This document shows, piece by piece, positions 14 to 16,007 of a DNA stretch of 64,000 nucleotides. This DNA comes from Chloroflexota bacterium (GTDB lineage: Bacteria; Chloroflexota; UBA11872; VXNJ01), in the NCBI GenBank assembly GCA_965261345.1, contig OZ253449.1, positions 32,001-96,000 of the forward strand, read 5' to 3'. The stretch's first letter is position 1. Each line of letters opens with the position of its first letter. The position numbers and the translations under genes were made by a program. The notes beneath the pieces were generated by a model that was not told the origin of the DNA, did no database searches, and saw only the letters and a list, made by a program, of their open reading frames with translations.

Positions 14-1102
14 ATGATGACAGAGTGTAATCAGCAGCAGCTCCAGTTCTGGGGACTTGGCCGCCGCCGGATAACGGCCAAGTTCGATGGCGGTCACCTG
101 ACCTCCGATGGTGGTGGGTTGCTGTTGCGGGAAGTGGATCAGCGCATCGGCCTGCTCTCGCGTCTGGCGGGCTGCTTTAGCGACCACCGTAGCCCATCGG
201 CAATAGAGCACAGCGTTGCAGACCTTATCGCCCAGCGCGTCTACGCCCTGGCGCTGGGCTACGAAGACCTAAACGACCACAACGCGCTGCGCTGCGATCC
301 CGCCCTGGCGCTCATGGTGGGCAAGCGTGACCTTACCGGTCAGGACCGGCGGCGCCTGCGCGATAAGGGCAAGCCGCTGGCCTCGGCCAGCGCTCTTAAC
401 CGCCTCGAGCTATCGCGTCCCGATAAGGCGCAGCAGGACCGCTACCGCAAGATCGCGGCTAACTTCTCCGGGATGGACGAGCTGCTCTGCGATCTCTTTC
501 TGGAGGCGCACCAGCATCCTCCCCGGCAGATAGTCCTCGACCTTGACGCCACTTAACGATCCCCTGCACGGGGATCAGGAGGGACGCTTCTTCCACGGCT
601 ACTACCGCTCCTACTGCTACCTTCCGCTGTACGTGTTCGGCGGCGAACACCTGCTGCTGGCAAGGCTGCGTCCGGCCGACCGCGATCCCGGTGCCGGGGT
701 GGTGGCAGAACTCTCGCCGCTGATCGATCGGATCAGATCGGCCTGGCCGGATACCCGTATCATCCTGCGCGCCGATTCGGGCTTTGCCCGCGATCAGACC
801 ATGACCTGGTGCGATAACAACGGTATCTACTATGTCTTCGGTCTGGCCCGCAATAAACGCCTGCAGCTGCTGCTGGGGAGAGCGCTGGCAAAGTCGCGGC
901 GGCGCTATAGCGCAACCGGCAAGGCCTCACGGCGCTTTCGGCAGTTTCGTTACCGCACCATCAGTTCCTGGTCCAGGCGGCGGCGCGTGGTCGGTAAGGC
1001 CGAGCACCTGCCCAAGGGTCCCAATCCCAGATTCTTAGTCACCAACCTGCCCTCCTCCCGTATCGGCAAGCAGGCCCTCTACGAGCAGCTCTACTGTCCG
1101 CG
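14..1102 (+). pseudogene. IS1380-family transposase A, N-terminal part (frameshift near 545-556; interrupted at YCPR by the LSR element)
   Basis: Motifs FDGGxLTSDGG, GYEDLNDH, IVLDLDAT/DPLHGDQEGRFFHGYY, RADSGF, VVGKAE..NPRF; ends YEQLYCPR at the element junction. Confidence 0.92.
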
Positions 1103-1105
1103 GGA

Positions 1106-3172
1106 TCAGGTTGCATACTGCGCCTCATTGCTAACTTGCGACAGTTCGTCGGCGGTCCCCCCGGCGGCATGAGATGAACCGGCCCCGCCCGGCGGCCATT
1201 CGTAAAGACGCACGCCCTTGTCGTCGGCCAGATGGCCCACCAGCAGCCCGCGCCGCCGCCGGTCGCGGACTCCGCTCTCAGATATCCCAAGCCGCCCGGC
1301 GACCTCGTACACGCTAAGCAGGCCCCGATCGCGCAAACGCTGGTAGCGCGTGCGCAGCCCGTGGGCGTAGATCATGGCCTGCACGGCGGTGCGGGTGTAG
1401 CGCGCGCCCCGCGGCGGGCGGTGATCGCGCTGCCGCAGGATCTCCACGATCGCGCCGATCGTGTGGCCTTCAAGCGCTTCGTCGACCAGGGCGACGGTCT
1501 CGACCGGGGTGCGGTACAGCTGGGCGCCCGACATCGGCAGGGGCGCGGTCAGCTCGCGGGCGACCCCGCCGCGCAGACGCACTCCCAGCCTGATCTCCTC
1601 CTGGCCCCTTGACACCGTAACGTCCTCGACCAGCAGCCGCAGCATGCGCTTGCGCTCCCGGGCCGGGGTCCCGGGATCGTTCCACACCCTGGGGAAGTTG
1701 GTCGCAAGTTCGGCGATCCGCCGCTGCTGCTGACTGTCGAACCGTTGCCGATCCTGCTCGCGCCGGCGCTCGTACTCAGCGCCCGCCTGCTCGAGGCGCT
1801 GCAGGCAGGCGTTCCACTCGGCCTCCAGCACGTCGGCGACCATGCGGTTGTGCGGATCGGCCAATCGGTAGCGGCGGCCGGCCAGATCGGCCGCCTCGCG
1901 GACGCGCTGCACGGCCCGGGACCGCAGGCCGTCGGCCTCCCTGAGGCGGCGCTCCAGTTCGTCCTGTACGCCAAGCGCCAGTTGCAGTACCTGCGGAGTC
2001 ATCAGTTCGAGAGCCAGATCGGCTACGGCCCGGTCGATCCCCGCGCCGGCAATCGAGAGGCAGATCGGTCTGGCGTTGGCGATCCCGTCGCGGTGACATA
2101 CGTAGCGGGGCCTGGTGCGGGAGCCGTCGTAGCGCGTCTGCAGGTGGTTCCCGCATTTCCCGCAGATGGCCACCCCCTGCAGAAGGGCCGTCCCCTCGCG
2201 CGCCGGTCCCTGGCGGCGGTCGGCGCCATGGGCCCTGGCCGAGCGCGCCAGCTGGGCCTGGTTGGCCTCGAATCGCTCCCAGGAAATGTAGCCGGGATGG
2301 TGGTCCTTGATCAGGGCGATCCACTCGCTGCGCGGCGCCTTGGCTGACCGGCGGCTGCCGCCGCGCCGCCGCCGCTGGGTGCGTCCGTAGGCGTAAACCC
2401 CGGCGTAACCGGGGTTGTGCAGGATCGACAGCGCACGGCCGTGATCGAGATTGTTCCAGAAGAGTTCGCCCTTGCCCGGGCCCTTGCGGGACCGCAGCGG
2501 GATCAGCAGACCGTTCGCATTAAAGTACGCCACCACAGCCCGCGCCGAGCCGCTGCGCTGGAAGACGTCAAAGAACGTGCGCAGGGTCTCCTGCACCTGG
2601 GCGTCGGGGTCCGGCACCCAGCGGTCGAGAGGGTCGTAGCAGTATCCCACCGGCAGCGCGATCTTGAGCTCGCCGCGCCGCGCCTTGGCCAGAAGTCCAC
2701 CCCGCAGACGGGACTTCATAACGTGCAGCTCGGCTTCCGACATCGTGCCCTTCAGGCCCAGCAGCAGGCGGTCGTTGAAGCTGGACGGATCATATATCCC
2801 ATCCTCGTCCAGGATCAGGGTGTCCGACTGCGCGCACAGCTCCAGCAGGCGCTGCCAGTCGGCGTTATTGCGCGCCAGGCGCGAGACTTCCAGCCCCAGC
2901 ACCATCCCGACGTTGCCCAGGGACACCTCGGTAACCAGGCGTCGGAAGCCTTCGCGGTCCGAGTCGGCCCCCGAACGCCCAAGGTCGGAGTCAATCACGC
3001 ATATCCGGTCGGCATCCCAGCCCAGGGAGATGGCCCGACCCCGCAGGTCGTACTGGCGGCGGGTGCTCTCGCCATGCTCTACCACCTGCCGCAGGCTGGA
3101 CTGGCGCACGTACAGGTACGCCATGCGGTCGAGGTGGTCGGCGGTCACCTTGCCGCGGGTCTGATCGGTCAT
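1106..3172 (-). CDS. Large serine recombinase (resolvase, recombinase and zinc-ribbon domains, C-terminal HTH), 688 aa
   Basis: YVRQSS catalytic motif, DLGRSG, EVSRLARN, ILHNPGYAG, HHPGYISWE, CGKCG...YVC. Confidence 0.95.
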   Translation of the reverse strand: MTDQTRGKVTADHLDRMAYLYVRQSSLRQVVEHGESTRRQYDLRGRAISLGWDADRICVIDSDLGRSGADSDREGFRRLVTEVSLGNVGMVLGLEVSRLARNNADWQRLLELCAQSDTLILDEDGIYDPSSFNDRLLLGLKGTMSEAELHVMKSRLRGGLLAKARRGELKIALPVGYCYDPLDRWVPDPDAQVQETLRTFFDVFQRSGSARAVVAYFNANGLLIPLRSRKGPGKGELFWNNLDHGRALSILHNPGYAGVYAYGRTQRRRRGGSRRSAKAPRSEWIALIKDHHPGYISWERFEANQAQLARSARAHGADRRQGPAREGTALLQGVAICGKCGNHLQTRYDGSRTRPRYVCHRDGIANARPICLSIAGAGIDRAVADLALELMTPQVLQLALGVQDELERRLREADGLRSRAVQRVREAADLAGRRYRLADPHNRMVADVLEAEWNACLQRLEQAGAEYERRREQDRQRFDSQQQRRIAELATNFPRVWNDPGTPARERKRMLRLLVEDVTVSRGQEEIRLGVRLRGGVARELTAPLPMSGAQLYRTPVETVALVDEALEGHTIGAIVEILRQRDHRPPRGARYTRTAVQAMIYAHGLRTRYQRLRDRGLLSVYEVAGRLGISESGVRDRRRRGLLVGHLADDKGVRLYEWPPGGAGSSHAAGGTADELSQVSNEAQYAT

Positions 3173-3439
3173 CGGACCGCCCCGACCGGGGCGCGGTCAC
3201 CAGTTCCAGCAGGACGTCCACGATCTCCGCCGCAGCGCCCGGCGGCGCCGCCACCGGGTCCCGGCGGAGGGTCGGTTCGCAGCCGTCGTTGGCAAGCAGG
3301 GCCGCCAGTCCGCCCCGGCCCACCTGCTCCATCCGGCGCCAGTCGGCGGCCCCGTCGGGCCATAGCGCCTGGCGCCGCAGGCGCTCGTAGGTCGCGGTCG
3401 CGGTGGTTGGGGCAGCGCCCGGATCCAGATCCGGGCGGG

Positions 3440-3892
3440 TTAATTTTTTGCCCGCCGCAGCGCCCGCTCGATGCTGCGCCTATGCACCGACAGGCCGAAG
3501 CGCTCCTCGACCATCCCGACCAGGCGCCGCGACCCGATCCCGGGCCGCTCGGCCCGCACCGCCAACAGGTACTCCATGATCTCGGGCCCCAGCTTGCGGG
3601 CATGGCGCGGACCGGGGCGCTCGGATACAAGGCCGGCCAGGCCGCGCTCGGCGAACGCCCGCCTGGCCTTGTACCAGGTGGGGCGGGTGAACCCGAAGGT
3701 CCTGGCGCTCTGGGCGATCGACATCCCGTCGCGGCAGACCCGGCTAAGCATCTCGTAGCGCACCTGCACCAGGTCACAGGGGTCGAAGAAGGGATGCTCG
3801 CAGAAGAGATCGTCGCGCACCCGTTCCGGGTGGGGGTTGAGCGCCCCGCTGCGCCGCAGGACCTCCTGCTTGCTCTCGCCATCGGTCGCCAT
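3440..3892 (-). CDS. HTH DNA-binding protein of the LSR element (probable start MATDGESK)
   Basis: FFDPCDLVQVRYEML, HTH-like SIAQSARTFGFTRPTWY, GPRHARKL; GGAGGA RBS before the ATG. Confidence 0.8.
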   Translation of the reverse strand: MATDGESKQEVLRRSGALNPHPERVRDDLFCEHPFFDPCDLVQVRYEMLSRVCRDGMSIAQSARTFGFTRPTWYKARRAFAERGLAGLVSERPGPRHARKLGPEIMEYLLAVRAERPGIGSRRLVGMVEERFGLSVHRRSIERALRRAKN

Positions 3893-4082
3893 CGCAGTCC
3901 TCCATGCGGGCAATATGCAAATCCATTGTTGCCCCATCCATCGGATCTGTCAACGCCCTGACGGCCCTTTGGTCGGCACCGTTCGGCCTCCGCAATGCGT
4001 ACTACCATCTGTAGCAACATCCTGTTAATCGCAGTCAGGATGTAGGCTACGGTCGTAATTACGTTTACAGTGGCGGCTCCAA

Positions 4083-4393
4083 TCACTTTACGTCTCCAGC
4101 ATCTTTGGCAAGGCTCTCGACAAACTCGGCAAGCTCCAGCAGATCCCGGGCCCGGAACGGCGATCGGCCCCCGGCGGCGACAACGAACGGGTCCCGGGGC
4201 AGGTAGTCGGTAAATCCGACCGGGAAGGTGACGACGCGGCGGTCCCCGTCGTGGCAGAAGATCCTCTCCCGGCCCCAGCCGGCGGCGACGTTAATGACCC
4301 GGTAGCGCCTGCCGTACAAGGGGTGGTAGGGGTGGATTACGCGGATGCTGACTGTGGCGGGACGTATATCACCCGCAGTTGACGGGGTGGACC
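4083..4393 (-). CDS. DUF5372/Y4bD-like small protein, lacking a start in the integrated state
   Basis: IRVIHPYHPLYG...WGRERIF...DPFV..AGGRSPFR..DLLELA; frame open to the element end. Confidence 0.7.
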
Positions 4394-4726
4394 CGCGGCG
4401 AGATGGAGAACCGCATCAAGGAGATGCAGCTGGCGCTGTTTTCCGACCGCACCAGCGCGGCCACCATTTCGGCCAACCAGCTGCGGCTGTATTTCTCCGG
4501 GTTCGCCTACCTGCTGCTCTATGGGCTGCGGCGACTGGGACTTAGCGGAACCGGTGATGCCCGCCTGCGCTGCGACACGCTGCGGCTACGGTTTCTCAAG
4601 ATTGCCGGCCGCCTGCGGATAACCCATCGCTGCATATGGTTGTCTCTGCCCACGGCCTATCCCTGGCAGAGGGACTTTGCCAGGATGCTGGCCAACCTGG
4701 CCAAGATCCCCATCCACCATATGTAG
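4394..4726 (+). pseudogene. IS1380 transposase A, C-terminal part
   Basis: RGEMENRIKEMQLALFSDRTS..ANQLRLYFS..LRLRFLKIA. Confidence 0.92.
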
Positions 4727-4926
4727 CCGGGGTAACTTGCGGCGCTTTCGGATAGGCCGGTGGCCAGGATCCCTGCCACCGCTGGGCGCAGAACCGATTC
4801 GGGCGCGCCCACGGTAGCCGATCGACCTCATTGGATGCGGATCGGCGGGCGGAGGCGGCCGCAATGGACGCGGCAAGATGGTTGGTGGCGGGAAATCAGT
4901 CTGAATTGGACCGATCAGCCGGGCCG

Positions 4927-4958
4927 GTGAAATATGCGGGCTAGCCCACACTTTGCAC
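4927..4958. repeat. Abutting right ends of two IS1380 elements around CTAG
   Basis: GTGAAATATGCGGG-CTAG-CCCACACTTTGCAC; the second arm reads GTGCAAAGTGTGGG on the minus strand. Confidence 0.6.
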
Positions 4959-5154
4959 GGACCCGTTCAACCGGCCGCTATCGGCCGCCAATTTCGGTTA
5001 TCGGTTGCAGCCTGACCGGCTGACGCTCGCCTGACCGGCTCCCCCGCCTCCACTGTAAGCCGTTTGTAGGGTGATGGCCGGGCATTGGGCCCGGCTTCGC
5101 CGGGGATCTGAGCGCTTTACGCTGATCGCTGCGGGGCCGGCGCCGGCCCCGCGC

Positions 5155-5538
5155 TCAGGCTCCCGGGGCGCGCGCCTTTATCGGGGTCCGGCGCATGAGC
5201 CGGGCCAGTATTTGCGCGAACTCGTCCTGGTACGGATAGGCGGAAGAGAACTCCAGCAGGATCCGGCGGGTGCTCTGCCTTACCCGCACCGCCACCTTCA
5301 GGTAGCGCCGGCGGATGGTTCCCGCCAGCGGCCGCGGCGACGGGGTCAGTCGATCGGGCTCGCGATCCTGCCCGGCCGCGGCGGGATCGTCTATTCCCAG
5401 TCGCCGCAGGGCGGAGCAGAGCACGTAGGCAAGACCGGAGAAGTAGAGCCTGAGCTGGTTGGCCATGAACCTTGAGGCGCTGGCGCGGTCGGCATGGAGC
5501 TGCAACTGCTCGTAGATCCGGTTTTCGCAATCGCCACG
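5155..5538 (-). pseudogene. IS1380 transposase B, C-terminal part
   Basis: RGDCENRIYEQLQLHADRASASRFMANQLRLYFS. Confidence 0.9.
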
Positions 5539-5849
5539 GGTCCACCCCGTCAACTGCGGGTGATATACGTCCCGCCACAGTCAGCATCCGCGTAATCCAC
5601 CCCTACCACCCCTTGTACGGCAGGCGCTACCGGGTCATTAACGTCGCCGCCGGCTGGGGCCGGGAGAGGATCTTCTGCCACGACGGGGACCGCCGCGTCG
5701 TCACCTTCCCGGTCGGATTTACCGACTACCTGCCCCGGGACCCGTTCGTTGTCGCCGCCGGGGGCCGATCGCCGTTCCGGGCCCGGGATCTGCTGGAGCT
5801 TGCCGAGTTTGTCGAGAGCCTTGCCAAAGATGCTGGAGACGTAAAGTGA
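5539..5849 (+). CDS. DUF5372/Y4bD-like protein, lacking a start in the integrated state (copy 2)
   Basis: Identical to copy 1; ATG at 8816 joins this frame in the circular form. Confidence 0.7.
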
Positions 5850-5978
5850 TTGGAGCCGCCACTGTAAACGTAATTACGACCGTAGCCTACATCCTGACTG
5901 CGATTAACAGGATGTTGCTACAGATGGTAGTACGCATTGCGGAGGCCGAACGGTGCCGACCAAAGGGCCGTCAGGGCG

Positions 5979-6007
5979 TTGACAGATCCGATGGATGGGG
6001 CAACAAT
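5979..6007 (+). promoter_or_regulatory. Putative sigma70 promoter for the HTH-LSR operon (mirror at 3925-3953)
   Basis: TTGACA-17 bp-AACAAT upstream of GGAGGA RBS and ATG 6040. Confidence 0.5.
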
Positions 6008-6039
6008 GGATTTGCATATTGCCCGCATGGAGGACTGCG

Positions 6040-6492
6040 ATGGCGACCGATGGCGAGAGCAAGCAGGAGGTCCTGCGGCGCAGCGGGGCGCTCAACCCCC
6101 ACCCGGAACGGGTGCGCGACGATCTCTTCTGCGAGCATCCCTTCTTCGACCCCTGTGACCTGGTGCAGGTGCGCTACGAGATGCTTAGCCGGGTCTGCCG
6201 CGACGGGATGTCGATCGCCCAGAGCGCCAGGACCTTCGGGTTCACCCGCCCCACCTGGTACAAGGCCAGGCGGGCGTTCGCCGAGCGCGGCCTGGCCGGC
6301 CTTGTATCCGAGCGCCCCGGTCCGCGCCATGCCCGCAAGCTGGGGCCCGAGATCATGGAGTACCTGTTGGCGGTGCGGGCCGAGCGGCCCGGGATCGGGT
6401 CGCGGCGCCTGGTCGGGATGGTCGAGGAGCGCTTCGGCCTGTCGGTGCATAGGCGCAGCATCGAGCGGGCGCTGCGGCGGGCAAAAAATTAA
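6040..6492 (+). CDS. HTH protein of the LSR element (copy 2)
   Basis: Identical to 3440-3892. Confidence 0.8.
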   Translation: MATDGESKQEVLRRSGALNPHPERVRDDLFCEHPFFDPCDLVQVRYEMLSRVCRDGMSIAQSARTFGFTRPTWYKARRAFAERGLAGLVSERPGPRHARKLGPEIMEYLLAVRAERPGIGSRRLVGMVEERFGLSVHRRSIERALRRAKN

Positions 6493-6516
6493 CCCGCCCG
6501 GATCTGGATCCGGGCG
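6483..6516 (+). promoter_or_regulatory. Putative -1 programmed frameshift signal (mirror at 3416-3449)
   Basis: A_AAA_AAT heptamer, 5-nt spacer, hairpin CGCCCGGATC-TG-GATCCGGGCG; -1 frame open into ORF 6600-6941. Confidence 0.6.
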
Positions 6517-6759
6517 CTGCCCCAACCACCGCGACCGCGACCTACGAGCGCCTGCGGCGCCAGGCGCTATGGCCCGACGGGGCCGCCGACTGGCGCCGGA
6601 TGGAGCAGGTGGGCCGGGGCGGACTGGCGGCCCTGCTTGCCAACGACGGCTGCGAACCGACCCTCCGCCGGGACCCGGTGGCGGCGCCGCCGGGCGCTGC
6701 GGCGGAGATCGTGGACGTCCTGCTGGAACTGGTGACCGCGCCCCGGTCGGGGCGGTCCG

Positions 6760-8826
6760 ATGACCGATCAGACCCGCGGCAAGGTGACCGCCGACCACCT
6801 CGACCGCATGGCGTACCTGTACGTGCGCCAGTCCAGCCTGCGGCAGGTGGTAGAGCATGGCGAGAGCACCCGCCGCCAGTACGACCTGCGGGGTCGGGCC
6901 ATCTCCCTGGGCTGGGATGCCGACCGGATATGCGTGATTGACTCCGACCTTGGGCGTTCGGGGGCCGACTCGGACCGCGAAGGCTTCCGACGCCTGGTTA
7001 CCGAGGTGTCCCTGGGCAACGTCGGGATGGTGCTGGGGCTGGAAGTCTCGCGCCTGGCGCGCAATAACGCCGACTGGCAGCGCCTGCTGGAGCTGTGCGC
7101 GCAGTCGGACACCCTGATCCTGGACGAGGATGGGATATATGATCCGTCCAGCTTCAACGACCGCCTGCTGCTGGGCCTGAAGGGCACGATGTCGGAAGCC
7201 GAGCTGCACGTTATGAAGTCCCGTCTGCGGGGTGGACTTCTGGCCAAGGCGCGGCGCGGCGAGCTCAAGATCGCGCTGCCGGTGGGATACTGCTACGACC
7301 CTCTCGACCGCTGGGTGCCGGACCCCGACGCCCAGGTGCAGGAGACCCTGCGCACGTTCTTTGACGTCTTCCAGCGCAGCGGCTCGGCGCGGGCTGTGGT
7401 GGCGTACTTTAATGCGAACGGTCTGCTGATCCCGCTGCGGTCCCGCAAGGGCCCGGGCAAGGGCGAACTCTTCTGGAACAATCTCGATCACGGCCGTGCG
7501 CTGTCGATCCTGCACAACCCCGGTTACGCCGGGGTTTACGCCTACGGACGCACCCAGCGGCGGCGGCGCGGCGGCAGCCGCCGGTCAGCCAAGGCGCCGC
7601 GCAGCGAGTGGATCGCCCTGATCAAGGACCACCATCCCGGCTACATTTCCTGGGAGCGATTCGAGGCCAACCAGGCCCAGCTGGCGCGCTCGGCCAGGGC
7701 CCATGGCGCCGACCGCCGCCAGGGACCGGCGCGCGAGGGGACGGCCCTTCTGCAGGGGGTGGCCATCTGCGGGAAATGCGGGAACCACCTGCAGACGCGC
7801 TACGACGGCTCCCGCACCAGGCCCCGCTACGTATGTCACCGCGACGGGATCGCCAACGCCAGACCGATCTGCCTCTCGATTGCCGGCGCGGGGATCGACC
7901 GGGCCGTAGCCGATCTGGCTCTCGAACTGATGACTCCGCAGGTACTGCAACTGGCGCTTGGCGTACAGGACGAACTGGAGCGCCGCCTCAGGGAGGCCGA
8001 CGGCCTGCGGTCCCGGGCCGTGCAGCGCGTCCGCGAGGCGGCCGATCTGGCCGGCCGCCGCTACCGATTGGCCGATCCGCACAACCGCATGGTCGCCGAC
8101 GTGCTGGAGGCCGAGTGGAACGCCTGCCTGCAGCGCCTCGAGCAGGCGGGCGCTGAGTACGAGCGCCGGCGCGAGCAGGATCGGCAACGGTTCGACAGTC
8201 AGCAGCAGCGGCGGATCGCCGAACTTGCGACCAACTTCCCCAGGGTGTGGAACGATCCCGGGACCCCGGCCCGGGAGCGCAAGCGCATGCTGCGGCTGCT
8301 GGTCGAGGACGTTACGGTGTCAAGGGGCCAGGAGGAGATCAGGCTGGGAGTGCGTCTGCGCGGCGGGGTCGCCCGCGAGCTGACCGCGCCCCTGCCGATG
8401 TCGGGCGCCCAGCTGTACCGCACCCCGGTCGAGACCGTCGCCCTGGTCGACGAAGCGCTTGAAGGCCACACGATCGGCGCGATCGTGGAGATCCTGCGGC
8501 AGCGCGATCACCGCCCGCCGCGGGGCGCGCGCTACACCCGCACCGCCGTGCAGGCCATGATCTACGCCCACGGGCTGCGCACGCGCTACCAGCGTTTGCG
8601 CGATCGGGGCCTGCTTAGCGTGTACGAGGTCGCCGGGCGGCTTGGGATATCTGAGAGCGGAGTCCGCGACCGGCGGCGGCGCGGGCTGCTGGTGGGCCAT
8701 CTGGCCGACGACAAGGGCGTGCGTCTTTACGAATGGCCGCCGGGCGGGGCCGGTTCATCTCATGCCGCCGGGGGGACCGCCGACGAACTGTCGCAAGTTA
8801 GCAATGAGGCGCAGTATGCAACCTGA
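6760..8826 (+). CDS. Large serine recombinase, copy 2
   Basis: Identical 688-aa translation; stop codon lies 3 nt inside the element end. Confidence 0.95.
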   Translation: MTDQTRGKVTADHLDRMAYLYVRQSSLRQVVEHGESTRRQYDLRGRAISLGWDADRICVIDSDLGRSGADSDREGFRRLVTEVSLGNVGMVLGLEVSRLARNNADWQRLLELCAQSDTLILDEDGIYDPSSFNDRLLLGLKGTMSEAELHVMKSRLRGGLLAKARRGELKIALPVGYCYDPLDRWVPDPDAQVQETLRTFFDVFQRSGSARAVVAYFNANGLLIPLRSRKGPGKGELFWNNLDHGRALSILHNPGYAGVYAYGRTQRRRRGGSRRSAKAPRSEWIALIKDHHPGYISWERFEANQAQLARSARAHGADRRQGPAREGTALLQGVAICGKCGNHLQTRYDGSRTRPRYVCHRDGIANARPICLSIAGAGIDRAVADLALELMTPQVLQLALGVQDELERRLREADGLRSRAVQRVREAADLAGRRYRLADPHNRMVADVLEAEWNACLQRLEQAGAEYERRREQDRQRFDSQQQRRIAELATNFPRVWNDPGTPARERKRMLRLLVEDVTVSRGQEEIRLGVRLRGGVARELTAPLPMSGAQLYRTPVETVALVDEALEGHTIGAIVEILRQRDHRPPRGARYTRTAVQAMIYAHGLRTRYQRLRDRGLLSVYEVAGRLGISESGVRDRRRRGLLVGHLADDKGVRLYEWPPGGAGSSHAAGGTADELSQVSNEAQYAT

Positions 8827-8829
8827 TCC

Positions 8830-9464
8830 CGCGGACAGTATTCCAGTTCGTACAGGTCGCGTCCCGCTACCTGCTCGGTCGGCAGGCTGGTTACGACGAA
8901 GCGGGCGTTGGGCCGCGGCGGCCGGGGCGCGCCGTCCCGGCCGGTATGCCCGGGCAGGTACTCGGCCTTGCCCACCACCCGTCGGGTCCTGGACCAGGTC
9001 CCGGCAAGGGTCTGGTGGGTAAAGCCGCGGAAGCGCCGCGAGGGCTCCCCGCTTGCAAGGCAGCGCCGCCGCGAGCGCTCGAGCGGGCGGGCGATCTTTT
9101 TCTCCAGGCGCGGGTTGCGCGCCAGGCCGAAGAGGTAGTCGATCCCCTCCCGTTCGCACCAGGTCATGATCGGATCGCGGCCAAAGCCCGAGTCGCCGCG
9201 CAATACGATCTGCGTTTCGGGCCAGGCGGAGCGGATCTTCTCTACCAGCGGCGCGATCTCGGACACCGCATCCGACCCCGGGGCGCTATCGGAGGGGCGC
9301 AGGCGGCAAAGCAGCAGATGCTCGCCGCAAAACACGTACAGCGGTAGATAGCAATAGGAGTCGTAATACCCGTGGAAGAACCGTCCTTCTTGCTTGCCGT
9401 GCAGCTTCACGTCGGTGGCGTCCACGTCCAGGACGATGCGCGCCGGGGGAGCGGGATGAGATTC
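8830..9464 (-). pseudogene. IS1380 transposase B, central part (N-terminus lost at the IS110 junction)
   Basis: RIVLDVDATDVKLHGKQEGRFFHGYY..RGDSGF..VVGKAEYL..DLYELEYCPR. Confidence 0.9.
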
Positions 9465-10824
<1,360 letters not shown>

Positions 10825-14651: not shown

Positions 14652-16007
14652 TCAGGTCGGGACGGGCAGCGTCCGCGCCCGGGCAAGCAGGCCTTCGAAC
14701 CGGTTCGCCCAGGGCCAGAAGGCCGGCAGGTGCAGGGTCGATATCCGGCCCGAACGGGTTATCCGCCCCGGCATCGCATACAGGCGGCGGCGGCGGGTTG
14801 CGGCGGTTGCAACCGCCGGGCGCTGCGCCGCCGGATCGGCCGCCATGCCGACCCGCTCCTGCCAGCGGCAGAGGTTGTGGGCGAGCGCCTGAACCCACAG
14901 CCAGGCGGCGTTGGCGGCAAAGTTCCCCGAAGGGAAGTGGTTCAGACCCATCCCGTACTTGAGGTCCTTGATGTGGTTCTCGATCGCGGCGTGGCGGCGG
15001 TGGTCGGACTCCAGTTCGAGCATGTCGCCGCCGCGGTCGGTTATGAAGGGGTGGTAGCTGTAGTCGGCCAGCAGCGCCAGCTGCGATCCCGGGGCGGGCC
15101 GCACCCTCCTTACGATCAGACGCAGGGCCGTGTCGTTGCCGCGGCTGCGGAACGGGACGTACGGTATCTCGGCCACGTCGGCATACCCTTCCCGCCAGTA
15201 CGGTATCGGGGTCCAGTCGGCCTCCGCTATCCGGGCAAGCCTGGAGCGCATGCCCGCATGCTGGCGGGCGCTGATCGAGAAGCGCGCCCCGAGCTTGCGG
15301 CAGGCGCTGTAGAGGTCGTAGTTGTAGAAGCCCGAGTCGGCGCGCACCGTCAACTGCCCGCTCGCCCCGGCCGCGCGCACCCGCGCGATCGTTTCGGTGA
15401 GAAAGTGCGCCGATCCGCGGCCGGGGTTGGAGCTTCCCGCACGCAGGCGGGCGAAGAGCACGTCGCCCGTGCCGGCGGCTGTCGCCAGCAGCGGGTGGAA
15501 GCCCTTGCGGCCGTCGTAGGCCCGGTTCCCGCCCTGCTTTTGGAGCCCGAAGGTCTGGCAGATGGTCGAGTCCAGGTCTATGGTCAGGGGGTCATCGCCC
15601 GGACCGGCGCCGGCCCTGAAGGCGCGCCGCAGCAGCTGGCGCGATAGACCGTCCAATTGCCGCACGTTGCCCCAGTTGAGGTTGCGCAGGAAGGTTCCGA
15701 GGGTGGAGGGGGCCTTGACCTTAAATCCCAGGACCCGCGCGCTGCCGCCGGAGCGGAGCGCGTCGGCGTCGTCAATGCAGTCTCCCCCGACAAGGGCGGA
15801 GGCGGTAAGGGTCAGGAGCTTGTCGGCGACGTTGCCGGTTCCCGGACCGCGCCGCGGACGGACGTGCACGGCGGCCAACTGCGCAAACCCCAGGTTCCGG
15901 AGCACGGTCAGCGGGCCGATCAAGCCGGCGTTGGCCACCAGGCGGTGGTCGTCGAAGGCGATCCGGAGGCGGTCGGGGTGCAGGCCGGCGGTTGTACAAT
16001 GCTGCAT
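14652..16007 (-). CDS. IS1380-family transposase C, intact
   Basis: LVANAGL, TIDLDST, RADSGF, HRRHAAIENHIKDLKYG; left end CCTAAGCGGGGATCCACCG near 16133. Confidence 0.9.
   Translation of the reverse strand: MQHCTTAGLHPDRLRIAFDDHRLVANAGLIGPLTVLRNLGFAQLAAVHVRPRRGPGTGNVADKLLTLTASALVGGDCIDDADALRSGGSARVLGFKVKAPSTLGTFLRNLNWGNVRQLDGLSRQLLRRAFRAGAGPGDDPLTIDLDSTICQTFGLQKQGGNRAYDGRKGFHPLLATAAGTGDVLFARLRAGSSNPGRGSAHFLTETIARVRAAGASGQLTVRADSGFYNYDLYSACRKLGARFSISARQHAGMRSRLARIAEADWTPIPYWREGYADVAEIPYVPFRSRGNDTALRLIVRRVRPAPGSQLALLADYSYHPFITDRGGDMLELESDHRRHAAIENHIKDLKYGMGLNHFPSGNFAANAAWLWVQALAHNLCRWQERVGMAADPAAQRPAVATAATRRRRLYAMPGRITRSGRISTLHLPAFWPWANRFEGLLARARTLPVPT

Follow-up and report, generated by a model that had tools for sequence, protein, structure and literature searches.

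A family of four-gene serine-recombinase elements found in transposase genes, probably at the codon four before a conserved glutamate

How did two identical pieces of DNA come to lie at the same codon of two clearly different transposase genes? The question is raised by a 64,000-nt stretch of a Chloroflexota genome (the window), which spans positions 32001-96000 of the single 2.39-Mb contig that constitutes the genome analyzed. Two insertion sequences (ISs) of the IS1380 family are each split here by an element of 3293 bp. Our comparisons make it highly probable that this is an integrative element of a large serine recombinase (LSR), that it belongs to a widespread four-gene family whose members are mostly ~3.3-3.4 kb long, and that it enters transposase genes antisense, by a 2-bp crossover at the codon four before a glutamate. 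The family is apparently undescribed, and both its choice of target and the splitting of one of its genes, a putative cofactor gene, are apparently unreported.

We compared the two copies base by base and found that positions 1092-4395 were identical, with 0 mismatches, to the reverse complement of positions 5537-8840; the first mismatches bounding the block around copy 1 were at 1091 and 4396. A repeat search of the window returned one inverted pair of 3348 nt (1076-4423 versus 5509-8856), with weaker inverted similarity of 72-77% on the flanks. Copy 1 (1101-4395, minus strand) carries the dinucleotide CG at 1101-1102, its recombinase end, and at 4394-4395, the end with the DUF5372 gene. Copy 2 (5537-8831, plus strand), which is inverted relative to copy 1, carries CG at 5537-5538 and 8830-8831. 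The CG-to-CG spacing of 3293 bp corresponds to one element unit. A third copy with 2 single-nucleotide polymorphisms (SNPs) was found at genome positions 1054948-1058251. The divergence among the three genome copies is thus 0-2 SNPs, and CG was present at both junctions in all three.

The flanks of copy 1 are the two halves of an IS1380 transposase gene, designated IS-A. Its N-terminal part lies at 14-1102 on the plus strand (PF13701 positions 5-147 and 149-331 of 435; NCBIfam IS1380), and its C-terminal part at 4396-4726 on the same strand (PF13701 positions 328-433 of 435) starts with the third base of an Arg codon followed by GEMENRIKE. Copy 2 separates the C-terminal part (5155-5536, minus strand; GDCENRIYE...) from the middle part (8832-9465, minus strand; PF13701 positions 144-331 of 435; ending ...LYELEYCP plus CG) of a second gene, IS-B1, and copy 3 lies in another IS1380 gene of the IS-B type, IS-B2. 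The NCBIfam profile NF033539 matched the IS-A N-half with 1.6e-44 (profile 140-329 of 419) and IS-B with 2.1e-44, and the PF13701 profile of the flanks stops at 331 and resumes at 328 of 435. Read in the transposase sense (a slash marks the junction here and below), the junction peptides are ...LYEQLYCP-(CG/C)-GEMENRIKE for IS-A and ...LYELEYCP-(CG/T)-GDCENRIYE for IS-B1, while copy 3 has C, not T, after CG. In-frame halves were obtained only with the crossover on that CG. IS-A and IS-B share ~59% protein identity in the N-halves and 45% in the C-halves (72-77% at the DNA level). An uninterrupted paralogue at ~255.5 kb of the genome reads LYCARGEMENRVKE with no residue missing, and the reconstructed site is therefore contiguous, with nothing lost or added.

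These observations confirm the pairing of elements in IS1380 genes that a preliminary description, made from the letters of the window, had reported. It had described two identical 3293-bp elements at the same codon of clearly different IS1380 genes, which is the Arg of YCP-R-GxxEN, joined by a 2-bp CG crossover with no target-site duplication, and each of these statements was borne out. The antisense orientation that it had noted holds for both window copies and also for the third. Likewise, the distant IS1380 transposase at 14652-16007 of the window (minus strand; NCBIfam IS1380, 7.9e-89), which it had listed as spared, is intact and carries the motif HRRHAAIENHIK.

All matching sites in the genome were occupied (3/3). 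No empty site with 2 or fewer mismatches from the 17-nt core was found anywhere in the genome, and wherever IS1380 relatives with an empty site were seen, here or in sister genomes, their core was different (examples are YCARGEMEN, YCPRGDMEN with other codons, and YCGRGEMEN). Judged from sequence, at least two integrations, one into IS-A and one into IS-B, were certainly independent, and a third independent integration is likely. The target shows the spacing Y-x-x-R-x-x-x-E, and PF01609 covers the distant third IS1380 of the window to residue 379, near the motif. A signature Y-(2)-R-(3)-E-(6)-K that includes the DDE Glu has been defined for IS4; the accessible part of that source does not mention IS1380 (De Palmenaer et al. 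2008, PMC2266710).

We then asked whether the site chosen in this genome is shared by relatives of the element. Scans with the LSR confirmed 535 places in species genomes and 588 in metagenomes, and the best 80 of each were kept, at 49-60% identity; the junction sets below comprise the best 80 genome loci and 84 further loci (80 from metagenomes and 4 from related genomes). The relatives have an LSR identity of 49-61%, come from many phyla and often lie on contigs of 3.3-3.6 kb. A match was present in 445 PLSDB records, mostly from rhizobia, and many genomes and plasmids carry more than one copy. When copies within single genomes were compared, units of ~3.2-3.4 kb with conserved ends were seen. 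One end consists of the dinucleotide followed by 19 nt ending in ...ACTGC, and the other of GCAGT(A/G)TG... over 19 nt followed by the dinucleotide. Both ends with the same dinucleotide were found at 49 of the 80 genome loci and 41 of the 84 further loci; the two-ended genome set leaves out loci with one motif missing or misplaced (L007, L040, L043, L064, L077 and short contigs). Three contigs (L018, L037 and L051) run exactly from dinucleotide to dinucleotide. Most relatives have a TT core; an alphaproteobacterial group has CG, CT, AC or AG, and one has TG. The family is also present in a cultured bacterium, on pNGR234a, where the four genes are annotated as a DUF5372 family protein, an HTH (helix-turn-helix) protein, a 'transposase' (ORF3, see below) and a recombinase family protein; this element sits in an ISNCY gene at SPQA/KGRVER.

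For these relatives, we translated the flanks on the strand opposite to the recombinase gene, letting the dinucleotide fill the first two positions of a codon. Of 86 unique left junctions, which do not include that of L007, 71 had Glu four residues after the crossover codon (+4); at any other position from 0 to 11, Glu occurred in 5 or fewer. The two control phases gave Glu at +4 in 0/87 and 9/87; Arg stood at +5 in 60 of 86. A looser junction set had Glu at +4 in 75/90, and Asn or Lys came first in 78/90. The junction peptides included ...D/NAxAESF (IS3), .../KGKVERxxRY (IS21) and ...SPWQ/NxYAERxIGSxRRE, all of which we take to be catalytic-Glu motifs. When 89 target N-halves were clustered, the largest groups were IS21 (23), an rve group with SPWQ/NxYAER (16) and IS3 (10), followed by ISNCY (6), IS66 (4) and IS481 (3+2). 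The remaining clusters were a Zn-ribbon protein of no known family (9), an HNH-like protein (2) and singles. The NCBIfam matches of the representatives stop at the junction, at profile positions 226/294 for IS21, 311/369 for IS3, 235/368 for ISNCY, 329/387 for IS66 and 228/284 for IS481. Among 54 N-halves, the Pfam tally was rve 19, HTH_32 15 and HTH_21 11, and the NCBIfam tally, with overlapping matches, was IS481 25, IS3 20, IS21 12, IS630 8 and ISNCY 4.

Near-identical LSRs were found in different IS families (L017 versus L019 and L020, L008 versus L009, L026 versus L033, L102 versus L105). In the TT group, the logo of the target attachment site (attB; 113 and 77 unique half-sites) reached 1.8 and 1.7 bits at +11/+12, where the Glu codon has its GA, with further peaks at +2 (G), +15 and -8. 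At the window site, +2 is G and +11 to +13 are GAG; the Glu of ENxIK follows the cut Arg codon by four residues, in the register seen across the family. The antisense orientation is attributed to the core, because in most relatives this is the non-palindromic TT. A minority of the relatives lie in non-transposase genes. The Zn-ribbon target cluster and the HNH-like target had no Pfam or NCBIfam match, and the motif-based target labels on the tree are rough (21 'unk' and 18 'nonTnp' of 141).

The preliminary description had expected homologous elements to be enriched at IS1380 YCxR/G junctions. A tblastn search with the IS-A and IS-B halves found IS1380 at 1 of the 80 genome loci, where it is uninterrupted and lies beside L041, 176 nt beyond the element; therefore, relatives show no IS1380 preference. 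No IS1380-like junction peptide was found among the 84 further loci, for which junction peptides were the comparison, tblastn having covered the genome loci. Of its proposal that the element is a hyperparasite of ISs with a conserved catalytic codon as attB, the parasitism of transposase genes stood and IS1380 as the general target did not. Parasitism of transposase genes appears to be a trait of the family, and IS1380 specificity a trait of this lineage.

Some relatives showed further features at their targets. A mainly alphaproteobacterial subclade with CG, CT, AC, AG or TT cores (L012, L035, L081, L016, L039, L040, L042, L054, L025, L027 and L103) lies in a repeated CxxC zinc-ribbon gene at ...YAER/xAAGxCxxCG... 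or ...CEPCRxD/RR..., and the target gene of L070 and L074 has an HNH-like motif. At L020, L111, L140, L160 and L011 the two flanks come from different IS families, for instance an IS3 N-side and an IS21 C-side; such mixed flanks could reflect either recombination between copies, that is, genome rearrangement, or an assembly misjoin of repeats.

A FastTree phylogeny of 128 LSRs paired the window LSR, on long branches, with that of L007 (G005, same genus, 60% identity). A decayed relative of a second lineage was found in the same genome at ~139.0-142.3 kb (L004:972-4262), with 71% DNA identity and a frameshift in its LSR. Its core is TT, and it lies antisense in an IS110-family transposase gene, at the Lys codon directly after GVDVA, and its target has GTCGA at +8 to +12. 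This IS110 site suggests that a DNA motif is recognized rather than a protein function. The IS110 halves around it match window positions 9699-10669 (99.3%) and 9470-9702 (89%). Older LSR C-terminal remnants with stop codons and 44-45% identity were seen at genome positions 2270082-2270312 and, in the related genome G003, at 1694384-1694617.

We identified four genes in the element, encoding DUF5372, the HTH protein (open reading frame 2, ORF2), a small ORF3 and the LSR. The preliminary description had correctly named a serine-recombinase element with DUF5372, HTH and 688-aa LSR genes; its count of three genes and its coordinates for the HTH gene did not hold, as there is a fourth gene, ORF3. 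The LSR gene (688 aa) lies at 1106-3172 on the minus strand (6760-8826, plus strand, in copy 2). Its product has Resolvase (PF00239, residues 18-168), Recombinase (PF07508, 193-310) and Zn_ribbon_recom (PF13408, 330-384; 25.2, just under the cut-off of 25.3) domains. Y21, R23, Q24 and S25 as well as C337, C340, C359 and C371 are invariant across 42 family LSRs, and the window LSR has the family-invariant residues. Its closest solved relatives are SPbeta YokA-type LSRs (E 1.6e-9, residues 62-356), and its best NCBIfam match is XisF at 1.4e-23, far under the cut-off of that profile. The window LSR may catalyze both excision and integration. The LSR stop is 3 nt from the crossover dinucleotide, and the C-terminal codons overlap an arm of the element's own attachment site (attP). 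Inverted GGTGCAGT-like motifs lie 19 nt from the crossover at both element ends and are conserved family-wide as imperfectly symmetric attP arms, in agreement with the imperfect dyad that had been described.

ORF2 (165 aa) lies at 3440-3937 on the minus strand (5995-6492, plus strand, in copy 2) and matches Pfam HTH_32 (4.3e-11), HTH_29 and HTH_23. It resembles the N-terminal ~100 residues of IS481 and IS630 transposases (NCBIfam IS481 positions 2-105 of 284, E 4.1e-13; IS630, 4.7e-13) and was found in 86 of 86 distinct elements examined. On this likeness, the ORF2 protein might bind the ends of the host IS or act in regulation. A 305-aa ORF at 3169-4086 was rejected as a gene, being a wrong GC-rich frame with a low-complexity translation and no Pfam match. 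A single sigma-70-like site (3953-3925), which runs into the ORF2 start, was left out of account.

The ORF3 region (3181-3449, minus strand) has about 85 conserved codons, with no Pfam or NCBIfam match, and across the family ORF3 is a conserved frame of about 100 codons in the -1 frame of ORF2. In most relatives its start is an ATG or GTG that overlaps the ORF2 stop. In the window element and L007 this codon is replaced by TTA, and the window ORF3 has no ATG, GTG or TTG before the conserved part and no normal stop. A slippery A_AAA_AAT at 3443-3449 is followed by a 5-nt spacer and a 9-bp GC-rich hairpin at 3416-3437 (minus strand, z = -2.0), which the sister L007 retains with changed sequence. 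Across the family, hairpins behind the A-run are not the rule (median z 0.15, 4 of 76 below -2). These motifs point to a likely programmed -1 frameshift from ORF2 to ORF3 that would produce an HTH-ORF3 fusion. The arrangement resembles OrfA/OrfAB frameshifting of the IS3 family: an ORF in the -1 frame comes after an HTH gene, the slippery stretch is rich in A, and the window element has a hairpin 5 nt beyond it. It differs in that the downstream ORF3 is ~100 aa without a family match rather than a DDE domain, and has its own overlapping start in most relatives.

The DUF5372 gene is arranged differently from the other three. Its body (4083-4394, minus strand; 5538-5849, plus strand, in copy 2) is a frame open to the crossover, and frame residues 19-95 match positions 1-77 of 78 of PF17342 with 67.9 bits against a cut-off of 25 (E 8.2e-19). 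The only start within the element is a TTG at 4319 (residue 27), inside the Pfam domain, which begins at residue 19. At the recombinase end, the minus strand carries a Shine-Dalgarno (SD)-like GAGG, six bases and an ATG in the conserved end motif (1114-1127, ATG at 1116-1114; ATG at 8816-8818, plus strand, in copy 2). We circularized the element in silico and found that this ATG reads across the crossover into DUF5372, giving a junction ORF of 108 codons. The junction ORF was open in 80 of 83 distinct elements (ATG 42, GTG 40, CTG 1), while the two other frames were open in 0/83 and 1/83. No in-frame start at all precedes the conserved THPFHP motif in 45 of 94 elements. The SD, the start and the first 6-7 codons of DUF5372 thus stand at the LSR end, overlapping the LSR stop, and the body stands at the other end, and therefore the whole gene exists only across attP in the excised circle. 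Since the LSR stop overlaps the DUF5372 start, the order on the circle is HTH, ORF3, LSR and DUF5372 with overlapping or abutting frames, and integration cuts DUF5372.

An AlphaFold2 (AF2) model of DUF5372 showed a small beta-barrel followed by two helices, with a mean predicted local distance difference test (pLDDT) of 83.2. A comparison of the fold with the PDB gave a best E of 0.022 (KOW/SH3-like barrels of eS4, NdhS, PsaE and NusG) and none with E <= 0.001, so that it indicates a general fold class only. The predicted complex of DUF5372 with the LSR scored 0.76, compared with 0.00 for the best of 3 controls; of 80 solved complexes 58 scored as high, as did 2 of 110 mismatched pairs. Agreement between runs extended to at least 87% of contacts, and the partner pLDDT was at least 71. 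Contacts were predicted between residues 336-341 (zinc ribbon), 390-410 and 476-538 of the LSR and residues 21-26 and 68-99 of DUF5372. DUF5372 is therefore predicted to bind the LSR at the base of the zinc ribbon and coiled coil. Directionality factors are known to act at the coiled-coil base of LSRs. We consider it most likely that DUF5372 would favor integration of the circle or hinder the back reaction, as integration destroys its gene and a classical excision factor could not be produced from it.

How these pieces would work together can be set out as follows. The LSR would excise the element as a circle and reintegrate it at attB-like sequences. The attB would be degenerate, with fixed points that coincide with codons that DDE transposases cannot change. 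Such catalytic-site codons would be the most conserved DNA of a multicopy, cell-dispensable and often plasmid-borne sequence, and would offer the element many safe landing places together with a ride on the host IS. On the circle, DUF5372 would be made and would bind the LSR at the coiled-coil base; after integration it would no longer be made, and the direction of recombination would depend on whether the element is integrated or free. The host IS may also carry the element in trans, and excision may restore the frame, as had been suggested earlier. We consider the chances evenly divided that these are a family of IS parasites that use the catalytic-motif DNA of transposases as attB, with several IS families open to each element, and whose recombination direction is gated by topology through the split DUF5372. 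That ORF2 is a second accessory protein, copied from the DNA-binding domain of a transposase, would be part of the same reading and hangs equally in the balance.

Could the copies have spread otherwise than by repeated integration? There may have been one or two real integrations, after which an IS1380 already carrying the element was copied, by transposition in trans or by segmental duplication, and gene conversion kept the copies identical. A single origin of copies 2 and 3 is possible, given the 99.35% identity of the IS-B1 and IS-B2 flanks over 1222 bp, and larger duplicated blocks surround some relatives (L012/L035, L025/L027 and L040/L042). We nevertheless regard this course of events as improbable. 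The IS-A and IS-B flanks share only ~59% of protein and 72-77% of DNA sequence, yet hold an identical element at the same codon. The IS-B flanks are also about ten times more diverged than the element (8/1222 versus 2/3304 differing bases) and differ at the base adjoining the crossover. Across the family, identical elements occur in unrelated IS families in the same register. Somewhat less probable still is that the element is a relic instead of an active parasite, either a fixed LSR cassette or a silencer or switch of IS1380 kept by the host, like the developmentally excised XisF-type elements. The XisF match of the LSR would fit, as would the other damage to the host ISs (a frameshift in IS-A and a truncation of IS-B1), the lack of an excision product in the Logan contigs and an ORF3 without normal start and stop. 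Recent movement is instead suggested by three copies that differ by only 0-2 SNPs and keep the LSR, HTH and DUF5372 frames intact. All family-invariant LSR residues are kept, the genuine relic in the same genome looks different (71% identity, frameshifted LSR), and several copies of family elements occur in many genomes and plasmids.

An assembly artefact, in which the second, inverted copy is a repeat misjoin, was also considered, as the preliminary description had named misassembly as a possible source of the second copy. Identical inverted copies only 1105 bp apart are indeed hard for assemblers. The read evidence consists of Logan contigs, that is, short-read contig sets, which drop rare forms. 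In three such sets from one sample, the element collapsed into its own contig of 3295-3301 nt. The depth of this contig was 35.4, 24.3 and 16.4 as compared to 3-15 for flank contigs, or about 2-4 times flank depth, and all four junctions were reached by flank contigs of the same sample. The flanks of each copy form a separate, diverged pair that matches as halves of one transposase, and the third copy lies 1 Mb away. A misjoin is thus very improbable, far more so than the relic. Two candidate signs of excision in the contigs were rejected. The joint 5527>9192 in run X7, with 3664 nt missing, comes from a diverged IS that carries a deletion, and loose contig ends at 4392 belong to other uninterrupted IS1380 genes of the YCARGEMEN type from the community.

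Integration at transposase codons, as we prefer to read the locus, has several observations weighing against it. Neither a circle junction nor an empty IS-A/IS-B site, which would read ...TACTGTCCG-CG-[C/T]GGCGA..., was found in the Logan contigs; these drop rare forms, so the result is uninformative on activity. A fourth run, from another study, contained a 98.3%-identical variant (54 differences in 3126 nt), seen without its flanks. Only IS-A and IS-B are certainly independent targets, since the two IS-B copies are possibly one duplicated IS::element composite. CG is palindromic, so the core alone should not fix the orientation, and the finding that all three own copies are antisense is not significant with such a core. 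Among the family junctions, 15/86 do not have the Glu motif, and our equating of the Glu at +4 with the catalytic residue is an assumption drawn from the YREK definition of IS4 and the DD(35)E literature. The complex score of 0.76 was obtained with our own alignments, and a solved LSR-RDF (recombination directionality factor) complex exists (9dxd family), to which likeness is possible. If DUF5372 were a classical excision factor, the split gene would be a paradox. The core of L007, the nearest relative, is TT, and its host gene encodes a transporter (the insertion is at the 3' end), not a transposase. No LSR relative above 61% identity was found in the genome or metagenome contig collections, the 60 relatives or the 98 genomes of the class, and IS1380 targeting is therefore documented in this genome alone. 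Given the core and site of L007, the specificity for IS1380 and CG appears to be a novelty of the lineage, known so far from this genome only.

How does the element compare with known systems? In the searchable full-text literature (subscription journals and supplements of papers excluded), neither DUF5372 nor the combination of genes seen here was found described, nor were recombinases aimed at transposase genes, and Challacombe and Kuske (2012) had no relevance to the element. The LSR targets named in the accessible part of one survey are Mg-chelatase, competence genes and prolyl isomerase, with transposases not named there, and the same part gives DUF4368 as the mark of most multi-targeting LSRs (Durrant et al. 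2022, PMC10083194). DUF4368 was not detected in the window LSR, for which a Pfam scan at E <= 0.01 gave only Resolvase, Recombinase and Zn_ribbon_recom. The multi-targeting clade, with TnpX of Tn4451 and TndX of Tn5397, is similar in having a sole recombinase on a small circle-excising element, a 2-bp crossover without duplication and one enzyme acting on many sites with related sequences. In contrast to that clade, the element shows no DUF4368 and carries no cargo, and its targets are codons of transposase catalytic sites, not a loose short motif genome-wide. Phage serine integrases with their RDFs (Bxb1/gp47, phiC31/gp3, SPbeta SprA/SprB, YokA-YotN 9dxd) share the domain order of resolvase, recombinase and zinc ribbon with coiled coil, an imperfect attP dyad, polarity through the central dinucleotide and a small partner, here a predicted one, at the zinc-ribbon/coiled-coil base. 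The sequence relation to them is weak, however, the element is 3.3 kb and non-phage, and its partner gene is cut by integration. To our knowledge, there is no case of an RDF gene that is cut by integration.

Elements that home into other elements offer a second parallel, as bacterial group II introns prefer IS elements and IS110/IS1111 have sequence-specific targets. These too find a safe harbor in multicopy, dispensable, mobile DNA. Here, the chemistry is that of a serine recombinase, and the target is the coding sequence of a catalytic motif across several IS families, not one IS or repeat. The circles of IS3, IS30 and IS21 and the Pcirc promoter of ICEclc likewise give rise, by the joining of two ends, to an expression signal confined to the excised form. 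What is rebuilt in our element is a coding sequence (SD, start and first codons plus body) rather than a promoter.

If these proposals are true, insertion sequences have dedicated parasites that inactivate transposases at the catalytic codon and perhaps ride on the crippled IS. This would bear on IS population dynamics and on annotated 'pseudogene transposases', and such parasites would be common on rhizobial and other plasmids. The LSRs would be natural serine integrases with a target motif readable from genomes, a single enzyme accepting a degenerate but structured attB. A cofactor gene that exists only in the excised form would possibly be a new control of recombination direction, usable for engineered integrases.

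The surroundings of the targets showed some further features. The IS-A transposase is split by a one-base frameshift near 543-556; contigs of runs X4 and X7 are without one base at 554, which leaves IS-A relatives or other copies in frame. The homology of IS-B1 to the full-length IS-B2 ends at ~9465, where an IS110-family element adjoins (~9466-10700; transposase at 9665-10612, PF01548 plus PF02371) and seems to have truncated IS-B1. The summed contig depth over the C1 region of IS1380 (4343-4676) was 160-485 in runs X3, X4, X6 and X7, and the loose ends there belong to uninterrupted genes of the YCARGEMEN type. These communities are rich in related IS1380 elements, and two weakly matching runs are labelled sponge metagenome. 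At 255.2-258.1 kb of the genome, an IS-A-like IS1380 with an empty site is interrupted ~1.7 kb upstream by a long inserted ORF, within nested IS debris.

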